A stretch of 64,000 bases of DNA from Myxococcota bacterium (GTDB taxonomy: Bacteria > Myxococcota_A > UBA9160 > UBA4427): positions 352,001 through 416,000 of the forward strand of contig OZ252299.1 in NCBI GenBank assembly GCA_965250285.1. Reading direction: 5' to 3'. The notes below the pieces were generated by a model. That model did no database searches and was not told where the DNA came from. It saw nothing but the letters and a program-made list of their open reading frames with translations. A program made the position numbers and the translations under genes. This document shows positions 53,687 through 60,134 of the stretch, piece after piece. Numbering within the stretch: position 1 is the stretch's first letter; each line of letters begins with the position of its first letter.

Positions 53687-54205
53687 CTATGCGCCGGGAT
53701 CCGACCCGGCGCCGGTGAAGGGTTCGATCACATCGTGGCGCAGGGCGTCGAGGCATGCGCGCGGCGCGCCCGCGCGCTCGAGCGCCTGCTCGGTGTCGCG
53801 CAGGATCCGCGTGATGCGGTCGGCGCGTCCGACCTCGCCCGTCTCGAGCGCGTTGGTGTCGAAGAGAATCTCGTGACCGTCCGGGTCGCGTGTCGACCAG
53901 CAGGCCCCGTCGGCGTCGGCCGCGTTCTCGAGGTCATCGGCCCGGTAGCGGCGGGGCACTTCGCCGGGGGCGTCGGGCAGGGCGGCCGTGACCGCGCCGT
54001 GGATCGCGAAGGCGTCGCCCCCGCGCCAATTGAGCAGCGGCGCGTCGAGGAACGTCATGAGGGCGAGTCGGAAGGGGCCGTTGCGCAGGACGATGCGGAG
54101 GCCCGGGACTTCTTCGACGAGCTCCATGCCCAGGGCTTCGTAGAAGCGGCGGGAGCGCGCGAGATCGCGTGCGGGCAAGCAGAGCGAGGTCCAGCCGAAG
54201 TCCAT
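53687..54205 (-). CDS. VOC/glyoxalase family protein
   Basis: LPARDLARSRRFYEALG...RDPDGHEILFD; GGAGG RBS. Confidence 0.8.
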   Translation of the reverse strand: MDFGWTSLCLPARDLARSRRFYEALGMELVEEVPGLRIVLRNGPFRLALMTFLDAPLLNWRGGDAFAIHGAVTAALPDAPGEVPRRYRADDLENAADADGACWSTRDPDGHEILFDTNALETGEVGRADRITRILRDTEQALERAGAPRACLDALRHDVIEPFTGAGSDPGA

Positions 54206-54265
54206 GGGCGCCTCCGAGAGCCCGTGCGCGGGCCCTCGGATGCTACCCCACGGCCAACCGCCACC

Positions 54266-54370
54266 TCAGGCCGGTGCGTACTCGACCAGCTCGAGGTCGA
54301 GGAGCCGGCGATAGAAGGCGATGGATCGGTCGAGATCGGTGACGGTCAGATTCACGTGCTCGAGAAACAT
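54266..54370 (-). pseudogene. 34-aa internally deleted VOC/glyoxalase remnant
   Basis: MFLEHVNLTVTDLDRSIAFYRRLLDLELVEYAPA*, with AAGGGAG RBS. Confidence 0.7.
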
Positions 54371-54508
54371 ACGGGTCTCCCTTCGTCGGGCGGTGCGTCG
54401 AAGGGCAGCGTGCCTCAGGGGCGCTTGGGGCGGGGCGATCGCGCCGAGACATCGACGACGGGTTGGCGCGTCGACGGGGACGCCGGTTGATCCCCGGGGC
54501 GGGGCGCC

Positions 54509-55495
54509 TCAGCCGCCCCCCAACAGTGTGTCGATGGCGCGTTCAACGAGCGCGGCCAATGCCCAGGCGATCGGCGGGATGATCACGTAGACGAGCACGC
54601 GCGTGAGCAGTCGCAGGTCGAGGGGCCAGGTGCGCGCGTCGGCGAGTCGGTCGCGGTGGGCGAGCAGCTGCTCCAGCCGCACCGTTCCTTCGCTCGATTC
54701 GGCCGCGCGATCACCGATCGCGTCGAGCTGCTCTTCGACCCGGGCGAGGCGCGCGTCGCGGTCGGCGCGGATGCGGCGGTGCACGAGGCGAAGGGGCCAG
54801 ATCAGGTAGAACGCGAGCGACGGTGTCGCGACCAGCAGGGCGAAGCGGTAGTTGCCGGGGCGAAACTCGAAGTCGAGCGACTGGAGCGGCGCGAAAAGGA
54901 GGGCCCCCATCACGATCGCGGCGTCGAGCACTCCGTTTCGCGCCAGGGGCCGCAGTCGACCCAGCCGCAACACGTCGACGGGCAGCTTCTCGCCGAGGTG
55001 CGCGAAGACGTTGGCCGCGATCACGCGCACGCAGAGCACGTTGCCGATGACCGTCCACAGGAAGATCTGGCCCAGCGAGATCGAGAGCGCGATGAACGGG
55101 TAGGGCGCCTGGGTCGCCCAGAGCGGATTCGTGTTGAACAGGCTCAGCCCGAGTCCGAGCAGCGTACCGAGCCACCAGGTGCGGCCCCACGCCGAGGCGA
55201 TCGTATCGAGCGCGGTGTCGGCATCGGCGGGGTCGGTCAGCTGCGGGCGCAGCTCTTCGACGAGCTCGGCCGACCGGCGCTGGGTGATCGTCCAGGCCGC
55301 CGTCAGGTAGGTCGTGACGCCGATCAGCATGAGGGACATGCCGATCAGCTCGCGGGCCGCCCAGCCCCAACCGGGGCGGTCGGTCGTCGAGAACGTGCCG
55401 GCCGACACGTAGAGCACCGTCAACCCGACGAAGGCGCCGGCGGCGGCGAGCAGGCCCGGCGTGCCCCGGGTTCGTGTGAGCGTCCATCGACCCAT
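54509..55495 (-). CDS. Hypothetical multi-pass membrane protein
   Basis: About 7 hydrophobic segments; ends WPLDLRLLTRVLVYVIIPPIAW; start uncertain. Confidence 0.7.
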   Translation of the reverse strand: MGRWTLTRTRGTPGLLAAAGAFVGLTVLYVSAGTFSTTDRPGWGWAARELIGMSLMLIGVTTYLTAAWTITQRRSAELVEELRPQLTDPADADTALDTIASAWGRTWWLGTLLGLGLSLFNTNPLWATQAPYPFIALSISLGQIFLWTVIGNVLCVRVIAANVFAHLGEKLPVDVLRLGRLRPLARNGVLDAAIVMGALLFAPLQSLDFEFRPGNYRFALLVATPSLAFYLIWPLRLVHRRIRADRDARLARVEEQLDAIGDRAAESSEGTVRLEQLLAHRDRLADARTWPLDLRLLTRVLVYVIIPPIAWALAALVERAIDTLLGGG

Positions 55496-55530
55496 CTCGC
55501 GCGAGCGTATCACCGCCGCGCCGATCGCGA

Positions 55531-56271
55531 TCAGTGACGATACTTGGCGTACATCCCCTCCACCCAGCGCAGGCCCGACTCGCCCGCCCAGCGCGCTCGC
55601 CACTCGACCATCGCCGGGCCGAGGTCTTCGGGCAACGTGGTGTGGAACCCGTCGGGATAGGTCGTGATCGAGAGCAGGGCGGCCGCCGTCAGGTCGGCCG
55701 CCGTGAAGTGATCGCCCACGAGGTGACCGCCGTTCTCGGCCGCCCGGGCCACCCGCGCGAAGGCTTCGGTCGTCGTCTCGAGCCCGGCCGCCGCGCCCGC
55801 CGCATCGATGCCCATCTCGCGCTTCATCACCCGGCGGAGGACCGGGAGCGCTGCGCGATAGAGCCGCTCGCGCAGCCCCCACGGCTCGCGCACGAAGATG
55901 CGTGCGACCGAGTCGAGGTCGGTGAGCAGCTCGTGGAAGAGCGCGAGCCGCACGGCCGGCCCGAGTTCGTCGTCGAACCACGCGATCGTCTCGACGCACT
56001 GCCGTCGCTCGGCCTCGTCGTGCGGGAAGAGCGGTCGCTCGGGCAGCCAGCGATCGAGGGCGAAGAGAATTTCGGTGCTGCCCGCGATGACTTCGCCGCC
56101 CCACTCGAGCACCGGCGTCTGCGTCTGGCCCGTCAGCTTGCGCATCGCTGCGGCATGCGGCCCCGGCCAGTGCTCGACGACCTCGTAGTCGAGCCCCTTC
56201 CACGCGAGGCCCCAGTGTGCCTTCTCGTTGAAGTGCGAGGCCCGAAAGCAGTGCAGGATCGGCTTCGTCAC
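55531..56271 (-). CDS. Glutathione S-transferase family protein
   Basis: SHFNEKAHWGL, GQTQTPVL, GSTEI, LVGDHFTAADLTAAALL; GTG start after AAGGAG. Confidence 0.87.
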   Translation of the reverse strand: MTKPILHCFRASHFNEKAHWGLAWKGLDYEVVEHWPGPHAAAMRKLTGQTQTPVLEWGGEVIAGSTEILFALDRWLPERPLFPHDEAERRQCVETIAWFDDELGPAVRLALFHELLTDLDSVARIFVREPWGLRERLYRAALPVLRRVMKREMGIDAAGAAAGLETTTEAFARVARAAENGGHLVGDHFTAADLTAAALLSITTYPDGFHTTLPEDLGPAMVEWRARWAGESGLRWVEGMYAKYRH

Positions 56272-56434
56272 GGTCGGTTCTCCTTCGGCTCGCGTCGCGG
56301 CGCGAGGCGGTCTACGGGATCGAGCGCCGGGCACGGGGATACGACCGCACGCTGAATATGAGCGCGAACATATCTGCCGTCGGACGCGTCAGCGGCTCGA
56401 GCGCACGACGCGGGCCTTCGCTCGGCGGTGGTCT

Positions 56435-56779
56435 TCATGCGCCGACGCCTCCGTCGATCGGCGACGCATCCTCGGCCGAGCCGAGGCGTACCCGGTCGAG
56501 GGGCAGCCCTCCCTCGCCCGGGTACGCGACCGGCACGGCCGGCTCGCAGCGTTGGCTGGTCTCGAGAACGGCCCGCTCCACCGCCCCCTCTTCGACCGGG
56601 CGTGCGACGCGCGGCGGGGCGTCGCCGGCCGGTGTCGCGCCAGCGCGCGCTCCCTCGAGGAGCGATACCGACACGACGAGCACGAGCAGCAGCAGGCCCA
56701 GCACGCCGGCGGAGACCAGGTGCCACACCACCTGCTCGGCCCGAACCTCGAGCCGTCGCTGTCCTTCGAACGGATTCAT
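56435..56779 (-). CDS. Small hypothetical single-TM protein (114 aa)
   Basis: GGAGAGG RBS; MNPFEGQRRLEVRAEQVVWHLVSAGVLGLLLLVLVVSVSLL... then P/A/E-rich tail. Confidence 0.6.
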   Translation of the reverse strand: MNPFEGQRRLEVRAEQVVWHLVSAGVLGLLLLVLVVSVSLLEGARAGATPAGDAPPRVARPVEEGAVERAVLETSQRCEPAVPVAYPGEGGLPLDRVRLGSAEDASPIDGGVGA

Positions 56780-56979
56780 GACCCCTCTCCAATCGGTTCC
56801 AACGGGTGCCCGGCCTCGTCCGGCCACCCGACAGACGGAGGCCGAGACCCCCGACTGCGTGCTTCGGCGCGCCTCTGGCACGCCGTTTCCCCCTTCGCTC
56901 CGGCCGACTCGGGGCGTCCTGCCTCCTCCAGGACGCCTGCTCCCGGCGGTTTCGCCCGCGCTCGCGCAACACGAGCCCC

Positions 56980-57022
56980 AAAAAGCGAAAACCCCTTCGG
57001 CCTGCTGGCGAAGGGGTTCTCG
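56980..57022 (-). terminator. Intrinsic terminator (attenuator) downstream of the leader ORF
   Basis: Minus strand CGAGAACCCCTTCG-ccagcaggc-CGAAGGGGTTTTCG followed by CTTTTT; 14-bp stem with one G-U pair. Confidence 0.85.
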
Positions 57023-57048
57023 TTTCGACTCGGTCTGGGATCGGGTTG

Positions 57049-57249
57049 CTAGACCCTTCCTCGCCAAGTCCCCCTTCGTGTGTGCCGCCCAACGCGGTCG
57101 ATCTTCGCGTCGAACGCACACTGCGTGATCTGGCCTGCCCACGGCTTGAGGCCGTTCTGGCCCGCAAACGCGCTCGAGACCGGCCCACGGGCCGACGCGT
57201 GCCCGGCGGGCACCGCGCGCATCTCGTTGTGGTTGCAGGTGAACGACAT
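57049..57249 (-). CDS. Putative attenuator leader peptide (66 aa)
   Basis: GAAGGA upstream of ATG; MSFTCNHNEM...GRHTRRGTWRGRV*; last codons complementary to the terminator 5' arm. Confidence 0.6.
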   Translation of the reverse strand: MSFTCNHNEMRAVPAGHASARGPVSSAFAGQNGLKPWAGQITQCAFDAKIDRVGRHTRRGTWRGRV

Positions 57250-57354
57250 CAGTGAATCTCGATCCTTCAATGCAGACGATGCAGATGCGCGAGCGATGGA
57301 TGATGCCCGCGCGCTGAATGCGAAATCGGTGCGGAACTCGCACCGGCTGGCCCG

Positions 57355-57427
57355 TGTGTATCGGCGATCGCGGCCGGTGTCAAAGCAAAAAATGAGCCGA
57401 CACCAAAAAAACATTGACCCTGACACC
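57355..57427 (-). promoter_or_regulatory. Putative sigma70 promoter with upstream T-tracts and GGTGTC boxes
   Basis: TTGACA(57383-57378)-17 nt-TACACA(57360-57355); T6 and T7 tracts upstream; GGTGTC/GACACC at 57376, 57399 and 57422. Confidence 0.6.
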
Positions 57428-57569
57428 ACCGAGCGTCGCCCGCCCGACACCGAAGCGACTCATCGATACCGGGTCAGGTGGCGACCCCCGCAAGGCACGC
57501 AGCGACGAGCCCGCCCCCACCCCGCACTCCGTTGCGGGGCCGCCCGGGTGCCCCCGCCTCGGGCGCTCG

Positions 57570-58976
57570 CTACAGCAACTTCTTGATCATGTTCAGCTTC
57601 GAGTCGCTGTACGGCGGGTACACGAACTTGATGTCGAGCCAGGTGCCCCGGCGCATCACCGACTTCTGGTGCGAGAACGTGTCGAAGCTCGTGCGCCCGT
57701 GGTAGGCGCCCATCCCCGACTCGCCGACGCCGCCGAAGGGCATGTTCGGGTTGCCGATGTGCAGGATCGTGCCGTTCACGCAGACGCCCCCCGAGCTGGT
57801 CTCGGCGATCACGTGGTCGACGGCCTCCGCCTGCTCGCTGAACATGTAGAGCGCCAGCGGCTTATCGCGGCCATTGATGAACCGGATCGCCTCGTCGACG
57901 TCGTCGACGACCAGCAGGGGCAGGATCGGCCCGAAGATCTCCTCGGTCATCGCGCCCGACGTCGGGTCGACCCCCGTCAGGATCGTCGGCGCGATGTAGA
58001 GGTCGTCTTCGTCGGTCTCCCCGCCCACGACGGCCTCGCCGTCCTTCAGCAGGTTCGCGAGCCGCCGGTGGTGCCGGACGTTCACGATGCGGCCGAAGTC
58101 GTCGCTGTCGCGGGGCGAGTCGCCGTAGAAGTTCCGAATCTCGCCCTTCAGGGCGTCGATGAGATCGCCCTCCATGCCCCGCTCGACGAGCAGGTAGTCG
58201 GGCGCGATACACGTCTGGCCCGCGTTCAAGAACTTGCCCCAGGCGATGCGGCGGGCCGTGACGTCGAGCTTCGCGCTGCGGTCGACGATGCACGGGCTCT
58301 TTCCGCCGAGCTCGAGGGTGACGGGCGTCAGGTGCTTCGCCGCCGCCTCCATCACGATCCGGCCGACGGTGCCGTTGCCGGTGTACATGATGTGGTCGAA
58401 GCGCTGCTCGAGCAGCGCCGTCGTCTCTTCGACGCCGCCCTCGATGAGCACCACCGAGTCTCGGTCGAGGTACTTCGGGACCAGGTCGGCGAGCAGGGCG
58501 CTGGTGCGCGGCGTCACCTCGCTCGGCTTGAGGACGACGCAGTTGCCGGCCGCCAGCGCGCCGAGCAGCGGCGAGATCAGCAGCTGCACGGGGTAGTTCC
58601 AGGGCGAGATGATCAGCACGACGCCGAGCGGATCGCTCACGATCTCGCTCTTCGAGGGGAACGTCTGCACGGCCCCCTTCACCTTGCGCGGCTTCATCCA
58701 CTTCTTGACCGACTTCGCGACCTGCTTGGCCTCGTCGGCGATGATCGCGATGTCGGCGGCGTAGGCCTCGAGCGCCGGCTTGCCGACATCGAGGTGCAGG
58801 GCCTCGGCGAACGCGTCGGCGTGGTCGCGCATCATGTCGCGCACACGCTCGATCTGCTGGATGCGCCACTCGGCCGGGCGGGTCAGGCCCGAGTCGAAGG
58901 TGGCGCGCAGGCGCGCGACGTCGTCGGCGATGCCCTCGACGGGCGTCTGGGGCACGGGGATGGGCTCGGCAGCCAT
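57570..58976 (-). CDS. Aldehyde dehydrogenase (ALDH3/fatty-aldehyde type)
   Basis: PWNYP, LKPSE, YTGNGTVG, LELGGKSP, NAGQTCIAPDY, EEIFGPILP, PFGGVGESGMGAYHG. Confidence 0.95.
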   Translation of the reverse strand: MAAEPIPVPQTPVEGIADDVARLRATFDSGLTRPAEWRIQQIERVRDMMRDHADAFAEALHLDVGKPALEAYAADIAIIADEAKQVAKSVKKWMKPRKVKGAVQTFPSKSEIVSDPLGVVLIISPWNYPVQLLISPLLGALAAGNCVVLKPSEVTPRTSALLADLVPKYLDRDSVVLIEGGVEETTALLEQRFDHIMYTGNGTVGRIVMEAAAKHLTPVTLELGGKSPCIVDRSAKLDVTARRIAWGKFLNAGQTCIAPDYLLVERGMEGDLIDALKGEIRNFYGDSPRDSDDFGRIVNVRHHRRLANLLKDGEAVVGGETDEDDLYIAPTILTGVDPTSGAMTEEIFGPILPLLVVDDVDEAIRFINGRDKPLALYMFSEQAEAVDHVIAETSSGGVCVNGTILHIGNPNMPFGGVGESGMGAYHGRTSFDTFSHQKSVMRRGTWLDIKFVYPPYSDSKLNMIKKLL

Positions 58977-59129
58977 GGGCAGGTCCTCTCGATCGGGGTG
59001 GGCGCGCGGTTCGGCGCCGTGGCCCCGAGATTCTACGAGGTGCGTTCGAGGCGGGCCATCCCAGCGGGGTCGAGCGCCCGGCCGGCCAAGGGGCGCAGGC
59101 AGCGCCGGACCGTGGGCGCCGAGGTGGGG

Positions 59130-59861
59130 TCAGGCCGGTGCGACCTCGCTGACCGAGATCCGGCCGCCCATGCACACGTCGACGTCGGCGCCCGAGAGCC
59201 GTGCCCGGCCGTGGTAGTCGGCTCCGTTCAGGTAGCCCTCGGTCCCGATCTCGAACGTGACCGGCAGCGGACTCGGATCGACGGGGCAGACCGACCAGCT
59301 GGTGTCGACGGCCTCGTCCGGCGGGTGCGGCAGATTCACGTTCCAGTAGGCGTACGCCGTCGGGGGTCGATCCAGCAGGTGGTCGAGCACCGGACGGGCC
59401 CGTTCCATCGTCGCCTGCCAGTCGATCGTGCGATGTCGGGCCTGGTACTGCGAGATGGCGATCGCCGGCGTGCCGCGAAGCCCGGCCTCGCGCGCCGCGG
59501 CCGCCGTGCCCGAGACGAACGTGTCGGTGCCGAGGTTGGCGCCGTGATTGATGCCGGCGATCACCCAGTCGACGGGGCGCGGGTGCGCGGCGGCGTGGGC
59601 GGGCCAGAGCGGCCCGCCGCGGGCGAGGGCGAGGCGAGCGCAGTCGGCGGGCGTGCCCGAGGCGGCGATGCGGTCGGCCCCGCGTGCGTCGGCCTCGATG
59701 TGCCGCCCCGATTGCGCCAAAGCGTGACCGATGCCGCTGCGGGGCCCGTCGGGAGCGATCACGATCAGGTCGGCTTCGGGGCGAAGTGCGCGCAGGGTCG
59801 TCTCGAGGGCCTCGATCCCCGGCGCGTCGATGCCGTCGTCGTTGGTGATCACGATCCGCAC
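59130..59861 (-). CDS. surE: 5'/3'-nucleotidase SurE
   Basis: RIVITNDDGIDAPGI, SGIGHA, GTPADC, AGINHGANLG...SGTAAAAREA, WNVNLP. Confidence 0.92.
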   Translation of the reverse strand: MRIVITNDDGIDAPGIEALETTLRALRPEADLIVIAPDGPRSGIGHALAQSGRHIEADARGADRIAASGTPADCARLALARGGPLWPAHAAAHPRPVDWVIAGINHGANLGTDTFVSGTAAAAREAGLRGTPAIAISQYQARHRTIDWQATMERARPVLDHLLDRPPTAYAYWNVNLPHPPDEAVDTSWSVCPVDPSPLPVTFEIGTEGYLNGADYHGRARLSGADVDVCMGGRISVSEVAPA

Positions 59862-60134
59862 GGCGGCGGAGCCTAGCAGCCGGTTCGGCCTCGACGCGCC
59901 GTCCTCGGGTGCGCGACCCCGTCGGGCCGGCGGCTCGGAGGCCGGTCGCTGGCCGGCTGCCGATCGGCTGCAGGCGGGTTGCGGGGCGGGTGCAGCGAAG
60001 CGCGACAGGATCTGGATTGTGTGCGTTTTTTCCTTCACTCGACGGGACGCCGGACGAAAAGGCCTGTGCGAGGCTGTGCGCTCGAGTGCCTCCCCCCTTT
60101 CAACCTCCTCGACGCGCGCAGCGGAGGACCCCCG

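Follow-up and report, generated by a model that had tools for sequence, protein, structure and literature searches.

What controls transcription of a small membrane-protein gene that, in an uncultured member of the Myxococcota, lies some 200 nt beyond a terminator-like hairpin, itself preceded by a promoter and a 66-codon open reading frame? A first-pass annotation of this DNA (the window, meaning the whole 64,000-nucleotide stretch analysed here) had read these parts as a leader in which the ribosome decides between termination and read-through. The elements exist and make up a real and conserved module, and this module is very probably a ribosome-dependent transcription attenuator. The sequence of the window by itself is no proof of a switch, because a generic scan returned 0 promoters and 0 terminators within 54000–60000, Rfam gave 0 matches in the window at the gathering threshold and the duplex between antiterminator and terminator arm has a shuffle p of 0.065; it is conservation that lifts the window element above chance.

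Every part of the leader that had been described was recovered on the minus strand. The sigma70-type promoter (57355–57383) has TTGACA at 57383, a 17-nt spacer and TACACA at 57360, and a conserved CCGA directly precedes its -10. Two T-tracts 5' of the -35 (57387–57411) may act as an UP element, AT-rich tracts being present in several relatives, and a short 5'-UTR hairpin is predicted at 57327–57345, which the same-genus relative has with changed pairs. The leader ORF (uORF, 57249–57049, 66 codons) is followed after 26 nt by the hairpin, a 14-bp stem (5' arm 57022–57009, 3' arm 56999–56986) with a U-tract reaching 56980. The segments credited with pairing potential were all located: CGAAGGGG at 57078 (57078–57071, codons 58–60 of the uORF, the antiterminator core) and again at 56999, ACCCCTTCGCCA at 57017, and a second G-rich segment at 57066–57053. 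This last segment belongs to an inner helix (57070–57027) that folding predicts to stack on the antiterminator helix and to run across the uORF stop. On the 3' side come a strong Shine-Dalgarno sequence (SD), GGAGAGGGG (56790–56782, ~200 nt past the terminator), the gene of a 114-aa protein with a single transmembrane (TM) segment (56779–56435), a GST-family gene (56271–55531; Pfam GST_N_3, E 3.8e-14) and, 3' of the latter, a 328-aa multi-TM protein (55495–54509) for which neither Pfam nor NCBIfam gave a match at cut-off. On the 5' side an aldehyde dehydrogenase gene (58976–57570) lies between the leader and surE (59861–59130), a conserved landmark of the locus by synteny, and the order is the same in L154. 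The leader DNA showed no differences across four sequencing runs, all from one study and one of them possibly the source of this DNA.

When 41 genomes were searched at the DNA level, a same-genus relative proved to have the whole element, and a further three genera had only the hairpin. The hairpin pattern, run over GTDB, returned 86 stretches, of which 80 were read; 24 were kept as the module on the basis of the promoter motif or a match to the TM protein, and with the window and L013 these make up the 26 loci referred to below, the other 56 being excluded as lying 5' of other genes or as ordinary terminators. Record titles of the 26 loci are mostly Myxococcota, Myxococcales or Deltaproteobacteria, with four Spirochaetaceae that conflict with the family assignment. 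A rough motif count put an RtcB-like start in 38 of the 80 pattern loci (one confirmed by Pfam), and in L040, L041, L048 and others, from Brevundimonas/Caulobacteraceae records, the hairpin pattern comes after a ~29-codon uORF and directly 5' of rtcB.

Searches with the downstream protein matched 36 of 68 genomes of one Myxococcota family, in 8 of its 19 genera (one match weak), with 28 of 31 genomes positive in one genus and 32 of the 68 without a match; outside the family there were 2 weak matches among 401 genomes of the phylum. The terminator was present in 33 of 35 protein-found loci, the two misses being the weak outside-family matches (33/33 within the family), and in 7/7 family loci unused in building the model. 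Of 32 protein-fetched loci, 30 had the promoter motif and 31 both the uORF and the antiterminator, with the misses at a contig edge. None of these locus counts is independent, because the genomes are kin. The family is wider than the 36/68 count, given that L168 (G011) has the uORF, the hairpin and a diverged small TM gene missed by the protein profile, along with a diverged -35. No second copy of the leader was found in this genome; the window terminator scores 63.6 bits under RNA model R1, and besides this element the RNA model found only the attenuator of leuA and one terminator flanked by convergent genes.

The region 56970–57110 folds at z = -2.93, with 1 of 200 shuffles as good. The check on hairpin covariation in homologues gave a divided answer: the terminator covaries (4 pairs, 10 cells, 0/500 shuffles over 30 rows, 26 of which had been picked by a pattern that fixes the terminator core), whereas covariation of the antiterminator is not significant (60/500 shuffles over 30 loci). 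The antiterminator pairing itself is conserved, as the annotation had expected, being 90.9% paired with the terminator 5' arm over the 30 loci. Its core (family consensus GGAGGGG) falls inside the uORF in 26/26 loci, where every reading frame is represented (17/6/3); apart from the hairpin, it is chiefly this complement of the terminator arm that is conserved in the leader. The 5' arm, the 3' arm and the antiterminator have changed together in the genus of the window (two loci) and in L082, where the register was set by hand. Taken singly, the duplex beats shuffles at p < 0.05 in 10 of the 26 loci and misses in the other 16, the window included, and in 25 of the 26 it is stronger than a same-length upstream control from the same uORF. 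The U-tracts are weak in many relatives (5–9 U in 12 nt). Thus the proposal of mutually exclusive antiterminator and terminator structures, tied to a uORF that is conserved and looks translated and following a whiB7/wblC-like logic, is supported by conservation across the family.

Two G-rich segments had been proposed to pair with the terminator arm. Both are present, but they are unequal, and conservation outside the genus is limited to the first. In nascent-RNA folds the register at 57078–57071 gives the minimum (-54.5 kcal/mol, with the inner helix), against -41.8 for the register at 57066; the second segment as main antiterminator was ruled out on energy and conservation. The main antiterminator sits 26 nt 5' of the stop (26–69 nt in the 26 loci, median 34). 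In folds of the window, ribosomes at codons 54–66 are predicted to cover the core, and a ribosome at the stop codon would remove the inner helix and the second segment, its footprint touching the core at the margin only and leaving it free or borderline; in most loci a ribosome at the stop barely alters the predicted pairing. The original claim that a ribosome at the stop masks the antiterminator is therefore not borne out, and the folds place masking during elongation, not clearly at the stop. At equilibrium the terminator is more stable than the antiterminator in 26/26 loci, by 3.6–18 kcal/mol, so that any switch must be kinetic.

The scaffold of this switch is common property of the lineage. 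Among the top-scoring non-module loci of the hairpin model, 12 were read; in 11 of them the same switch stands 5' of isopropylmalate-synthase-family genes with Leu-rich leaders (L178 was judged by its leader only, as the contig ends before the gene), and in the twelfth it stands 5' of an MFS gene. Classical leuA leader-peptide attenuators are the reference class here. The predicted leuA attenuators of the lineage (L173–L185) share with the module a near-identical terminator hairpin, a G-rich antiterminator and the promoter form; their leaders contain Leu clusters, are ~20–35 codons long and in most cases stop at the antiterminator, whereas the uORFs of the module run to 51–110 codons without a run and stop 26–69 nt past it. 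The attenuator predicted for this genome's own leuA (L185, G000:C1:1233478–1233834, plus strand) shows the same promoter form and antiterminator/terminator scaffold, with a 34-codon leader containing a Leu-Leu-Leu run and a gene 3' of it that matches HMGL-like and IPMS_D2. Since the same switch precedes leuA, also in this genome, the window element appears to be a long-leader version of the standard attenuator of the lineage. Short uORFs (27–35 codons) on the same scaffold were also seen in L043, L047, L064 and L181, with genes for MFS-like transporters behind L043, L047 and L181 (Pfam confirms that of L181).

The promoter form, TTGAC-18 nt-TA with a -10 that lacks the final T of the textbook -10, also stands 5' of 12/12 leuA/MFS leaders of the order, the leuA of this genome included, and for this reason is likely the housekeeping promoter form. 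The CCGA (57364–57361, minus strand, and its homologues) is almost invariant in the module and absent from the leuA promoters; it may be an extended -10 or a factor site.

As to the uORF, its frame looks translated while its peptide looks nearly free of constraint. In the window GC3 is 0.89 (GC1 0.62, GC2 0.57), GC3 exceeds GC1 and GC2 in 26/26 uORFs (0.80 vs 0.62 and 0.60), and dN/dS ranges from 0.24 to 1.27 across 11 pairs (0.81 for the window and its same-genus relative). The first Met is the sole invariant column of the peptide over the 26 loci, lengths span 51–110 codons (with 45 in L154 and 116 in L130), and Pfam and NCBIfam held no match to the uORF. A conserved leader C-terminus, which the annotation had suggested looking for, is not supported at the protein level: only the RNA is kept, with the antiterminator read in different frames. 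In the window a weak SD (AAGGA, 57267–57263) lies 13 nt from the ATG, with an in-frame TTG at 57270; for L090 and L095 the starts were reassigned to a GTG behind an SD in the analyses of His and ribosome-binding-site (RBS) pairing, composition, amino-acid types and dN/dS. Three uORFs (L012:1252–1479, plus strand, L089 and L171) are lengthened by short tandem repeats, which is consistent with tolerance of length and sequence.

Does the leader then sense a particular amino acid? It was correctly described as lacking a run of one residue, and across the 26 uORFs no codon position is fixed either. A leader built to sense all 20 amino acids was rejected (18.3 types per uORF, with 17.9 in each of two controls, and 21/26 uORFs without Tyr; the window has 19 types and likewise no Tyr), as was an arrest-like RAxP motif near the N-terminus, seen in the first five uORFs and lost among the 26. 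Sensing of a single amino acid, most plausibly His (early) or Trp (one mid-leader codon), is unlikely, although it finds some footing in the data: His makes up 11.5% of codons 2–10 (1155 control genes: 2.2%) and occurs there in 18 of the 26 uORFs, 25 of 26 contain Trp somewhere, and the scaffold is that of the leuA attenuators, whose sister leaders would sense leucine. The leader starts are G-poor, however (42% C and 18% G in codons 2–10, vs 31% G), and this composition alone predicts 17 of the 27 early His codons. Moreover, codons 2–10 of the same-genus relative are free of His, the target is neither a biosynthesis nor an uptake gene, and kinship among the loci makes the counts overstate the signal.

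The better reading is that the attenuator lets RNA polymerase into the small membrane gene when ribosomes generally lag on the leader, to which we assign a probability of about 0.6. A ribosome keeping pace with RNA polymerase would cover or unzip the G-rich antiterminator (codons 54–66) as the 5' arm emerges; with the antiterminator covered the hairpin would form, and transcription would stop near 56980. Were the ribosome stalled or slowed in the first ~53 codons, the antiterminator would be free to capture the 5' arm ahead of synthesis of the 3' arm, and read-through into the small membrane gene would follow. The input would likely be general slowing, by ribosome-targeting antibiotics or by starvation for almost any amino acid, since the peptide shows no constraint and most amino acids occur in it.

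This model of coupled versus lagging ribosomes is based on the attenuation mechanism of wblC/whiB7 (PMC10274678 and PMC11550727). For whiB7, PMC10274678 has poor uORF translation allowing the antiterminator and read-through, and loss of the start codon inducing. Like those leaders, the module has a long uORF of mixed composition 5' of a Rho-independent terminator, with read-through predicted upon poor translation; an untranslated window leader is likewise predicted to read through, so that loss of translation should induce as for whiB7 (PMC10274678). There are also differences. The whiB7 uORF is rich in Ala (25–40% according to PMC10274678), whereas the module uORFs have 13.0% (background 12.1%; 9 of 66 codons in the window). 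The whiB7/wblC systems belong to Actinomycetota, the module to Myxococcota hosts with RBS-antiterminator pairing in 11 of its 26 loci; and the gene targeted in the window is a truncated RND adaptor anchor (see below) instead of a WhiB-like regulator, with no feedback loop seen. In Pseudomonas, the PA5471.1-armZ leader links ribosome inhibitors through attenuation to RND efflux, that by MexXY, by way of an anti-repressor (PMC12057347). That route is indirect, in contrast to the window leader, which sits directly on an adaptor-derived gene.

Slightly less credible than amino-acid sensing, and improbable in our view, is that the terminated leader is itself the product, as a small RNA or protein ended by an ordinary terminator, with the gene transcribed separately or by leakage. 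A leader of ~370 nt with its own promoter and a hairpin-gene gap of 74–315 nt would suit such a product, as would a terminator favoured at equilibrium and an antiterminator without significant covariation. A peptide with one invariant column would not, nor would a leader whose conservation outside the hairpin is largely confined to the terminator-arm complement; every complete locus has the gene behind it, and the leuA leaders use the same complement.

Some relatives of the window may follow a second logic. In 11 of 26 loci the pairing between the antiterminator and the 20 nt 5' of the uORF start is stronger than for 95% of 300 control RBSs, and cognate RBS-antiterminator combinations outperform swapped ones (p = 0.024). 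Whole-leader folds predict that a ribosome at the start codon raises antiterminator pairing by at least 0.3 in 7 of 26 loci, over spans of 150–300 nt for which long-range fold predictions are uncertain. The window has no such pairing (-5.4 kcal/mol, a value that 93% of control RBSs match), and its antiterminator pairing probability is 1.00 in every state except with a ribosome on the core. In the paired relatives a leader free of ribosomes would end in termination, and induction would come from a ribosome held at its start, so that loss of the start codon is predicted to repress in those relatives and to induce in the window. The logic predicted for these relatives resembles that of Bacillus subtilis vmlR, where a ribosome stalled at the start of the uORF breaks an anti-antiterminator; there the 3-codon uORF lies in a local hairpin, unlike the long spans of the relatives and the unpaired window (PMC9226507).

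The C-rich uORF start raises another option, namely that control is mainly by Rho, loading there when the leader is untranslated, or by a DNA- or RNA-binding protein, for which the CCGA would be a factor site. We consider this very unlikely: the skewed codons, the weak U-tracts and the absence of CCGA from leuA promoters are in its favour, but the hairpin covaries, its complement is conserved, and the G-poor stretch extends over only ~27 nt, which is short for a rut site. A precedent for such an arrangement is the DUF1127 leader of Sinorhizobium, a uORF attenuator that requires C-rich codons at the head of its uORF and base-pairing between these codons and the RBS; it is a parallel to the C-rich start and to the RBS pairing of the relatives described above (PMC12218461).

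We now turn to the gene behind the switch, which had been taken as unrecognised. The 114-aa protein has one helix (8–47, hydropathy peak 22–40) and is otherwise coil; Pfam and NCBIfam (TIGR01730 included) gave no match, and the ESM Atlas only unnamed clusters below 0.9. Profile searches with its family returned 141 and 88 matches, mostly of 70–130 aa, together with longer homologues that an exhaustive HMMER search found and a word-indexed search missed. One of these, P0145, is a 396-aa RND periplasmic adaptor (TIGR01730, 208.6 bits vs a cut-off of 94.9) that matches the family profile at E 1.4e-14 and the N-terminal anchor pairwise at E 1e-5 (tblastn E 1.4e-11, driven by the TM segment). Like adaptors of that type, the window protein keeps the TM anchor and linker; unlike them, it has no hairpin, lipoyl, barrel or membrane-proximal domains and no adjacent permease. 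The link of the window protein to adaptors runs through the anchor, and its tail after the TM segment is by itself not significantly adaptor-like (4.6 bits, 29/100 shuffles as good). On these matches, the small protein is best regarded as the N-terminal membrane anchor of an RND periplasmic adaptor lineage from which the adaptor body is absent.

Other members of the family retain more. P0167, P0152 and P0168 keep the N-terminal part of the adaptor, L013 and P0169 only its C-terminal domain, and in L042 adaptor-like sequence continues beyond the stop. Because complementary remnants occur in different genera, in a graded series, we infer a full-length ancestor. In L013 (1662–2153, plus strand) and P0169 the TM anchor is joined directly to the C-terminal membrane-proximal domain, a minimal adaptor derivative.

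The full-length form P0145 is represented by one protein, from a contig of 1737 bp, and a metagenome scan for its DNA context gave one adaptor of 27% identity. No full-length form with this N-terminus was found among 68 family or 225 class genomes, 6/6 regions read around the closest lipoprotein-type adaptors had no such hairpin, and a close orthologue of the permease of the nearest adaptor is absent from this genome (best 23–32%). In the loci listed no RND permease lies 3' of the small gene. The idea of a module that includes the GST and the membrane protein fails, as a GST follows in only 2 of 26 loci and the next gene is on the opposite strand in at least 8 of 26. The ancestral target of the attenuator was likely an efflux adaptor.

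The remnant is under purifying selection, as dN/dS over the anchor (first 45 codons) is 0.14–0.35 in 11/11 pairs (0.14 for the window), against 0.24–1.27 for the uORF, and homologues of the small gene have a strong SD and an intact start. It is thus very unlikely that the small gene does nothing and that the locus is in decay, as what is left of an efflux operon under attenuator control: the graded truncations and frameshifts across lineages, the missing permease and a distribution so patchy that nearly half of the family genomes have no match would fit decay, but the constraint on the anchor already disfavours it, as do the SD and start, the retention in one genus and the conserved promoter and switch.

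AcrZ-type proteins are small pump partners, and Pfam and NCBIfam searches showed no sequence link between AcrZ and the window protein. Judged by its ancestry, the anchor peptide would most likely act in trans on an inner-membrane transport complex, a tentative proposal that falls well short of an even chance and is the weakest step of the model.

A whiB7-like attenuator is a well-known kind of regulator; in open-access main texts we found no description of this element. Its effect is restricted to one lineage. With the module, whiB7-like ribosome sensing, which is sequence-independent, would be extended to a Myxococcota family without cultured members, and the same RNA switch is seen to serve leuA, an MFS gene and an efflux-adaptor derivative. 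The target is unusual too, a selected remnant of a pump subunit with truncation intermediates still visible. One could go further and suppose, more doubtfully, that the adaptor was whittled separately in several lineages to its anchor, now a translation-stress-induced microprotein tuning transport complexes in trans under two leader logics, whiB7-like in the window and, in RBS-paired relatives, induced only by a ribosome held at the start. If true, this would be a natural series from biosynthetic attenuator to antibiotic sensor and from pump subunit to regulator.

Two minor features of the genes downstream may be added. An inverted repeat, ATATG-N8-CATAT (window 56373–56356, minus strand), lies ~85 nt before the GST start and is absent from the corresponding place in the same-genus relative; it is a possible operator for separate control of the GST gene. 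In the largest genus, many short forms of the small protein (those of L044–L106, and P0001 and relatives) end in RPSG or RPAG after a variable tail, possibly a selected C-terminal motif.
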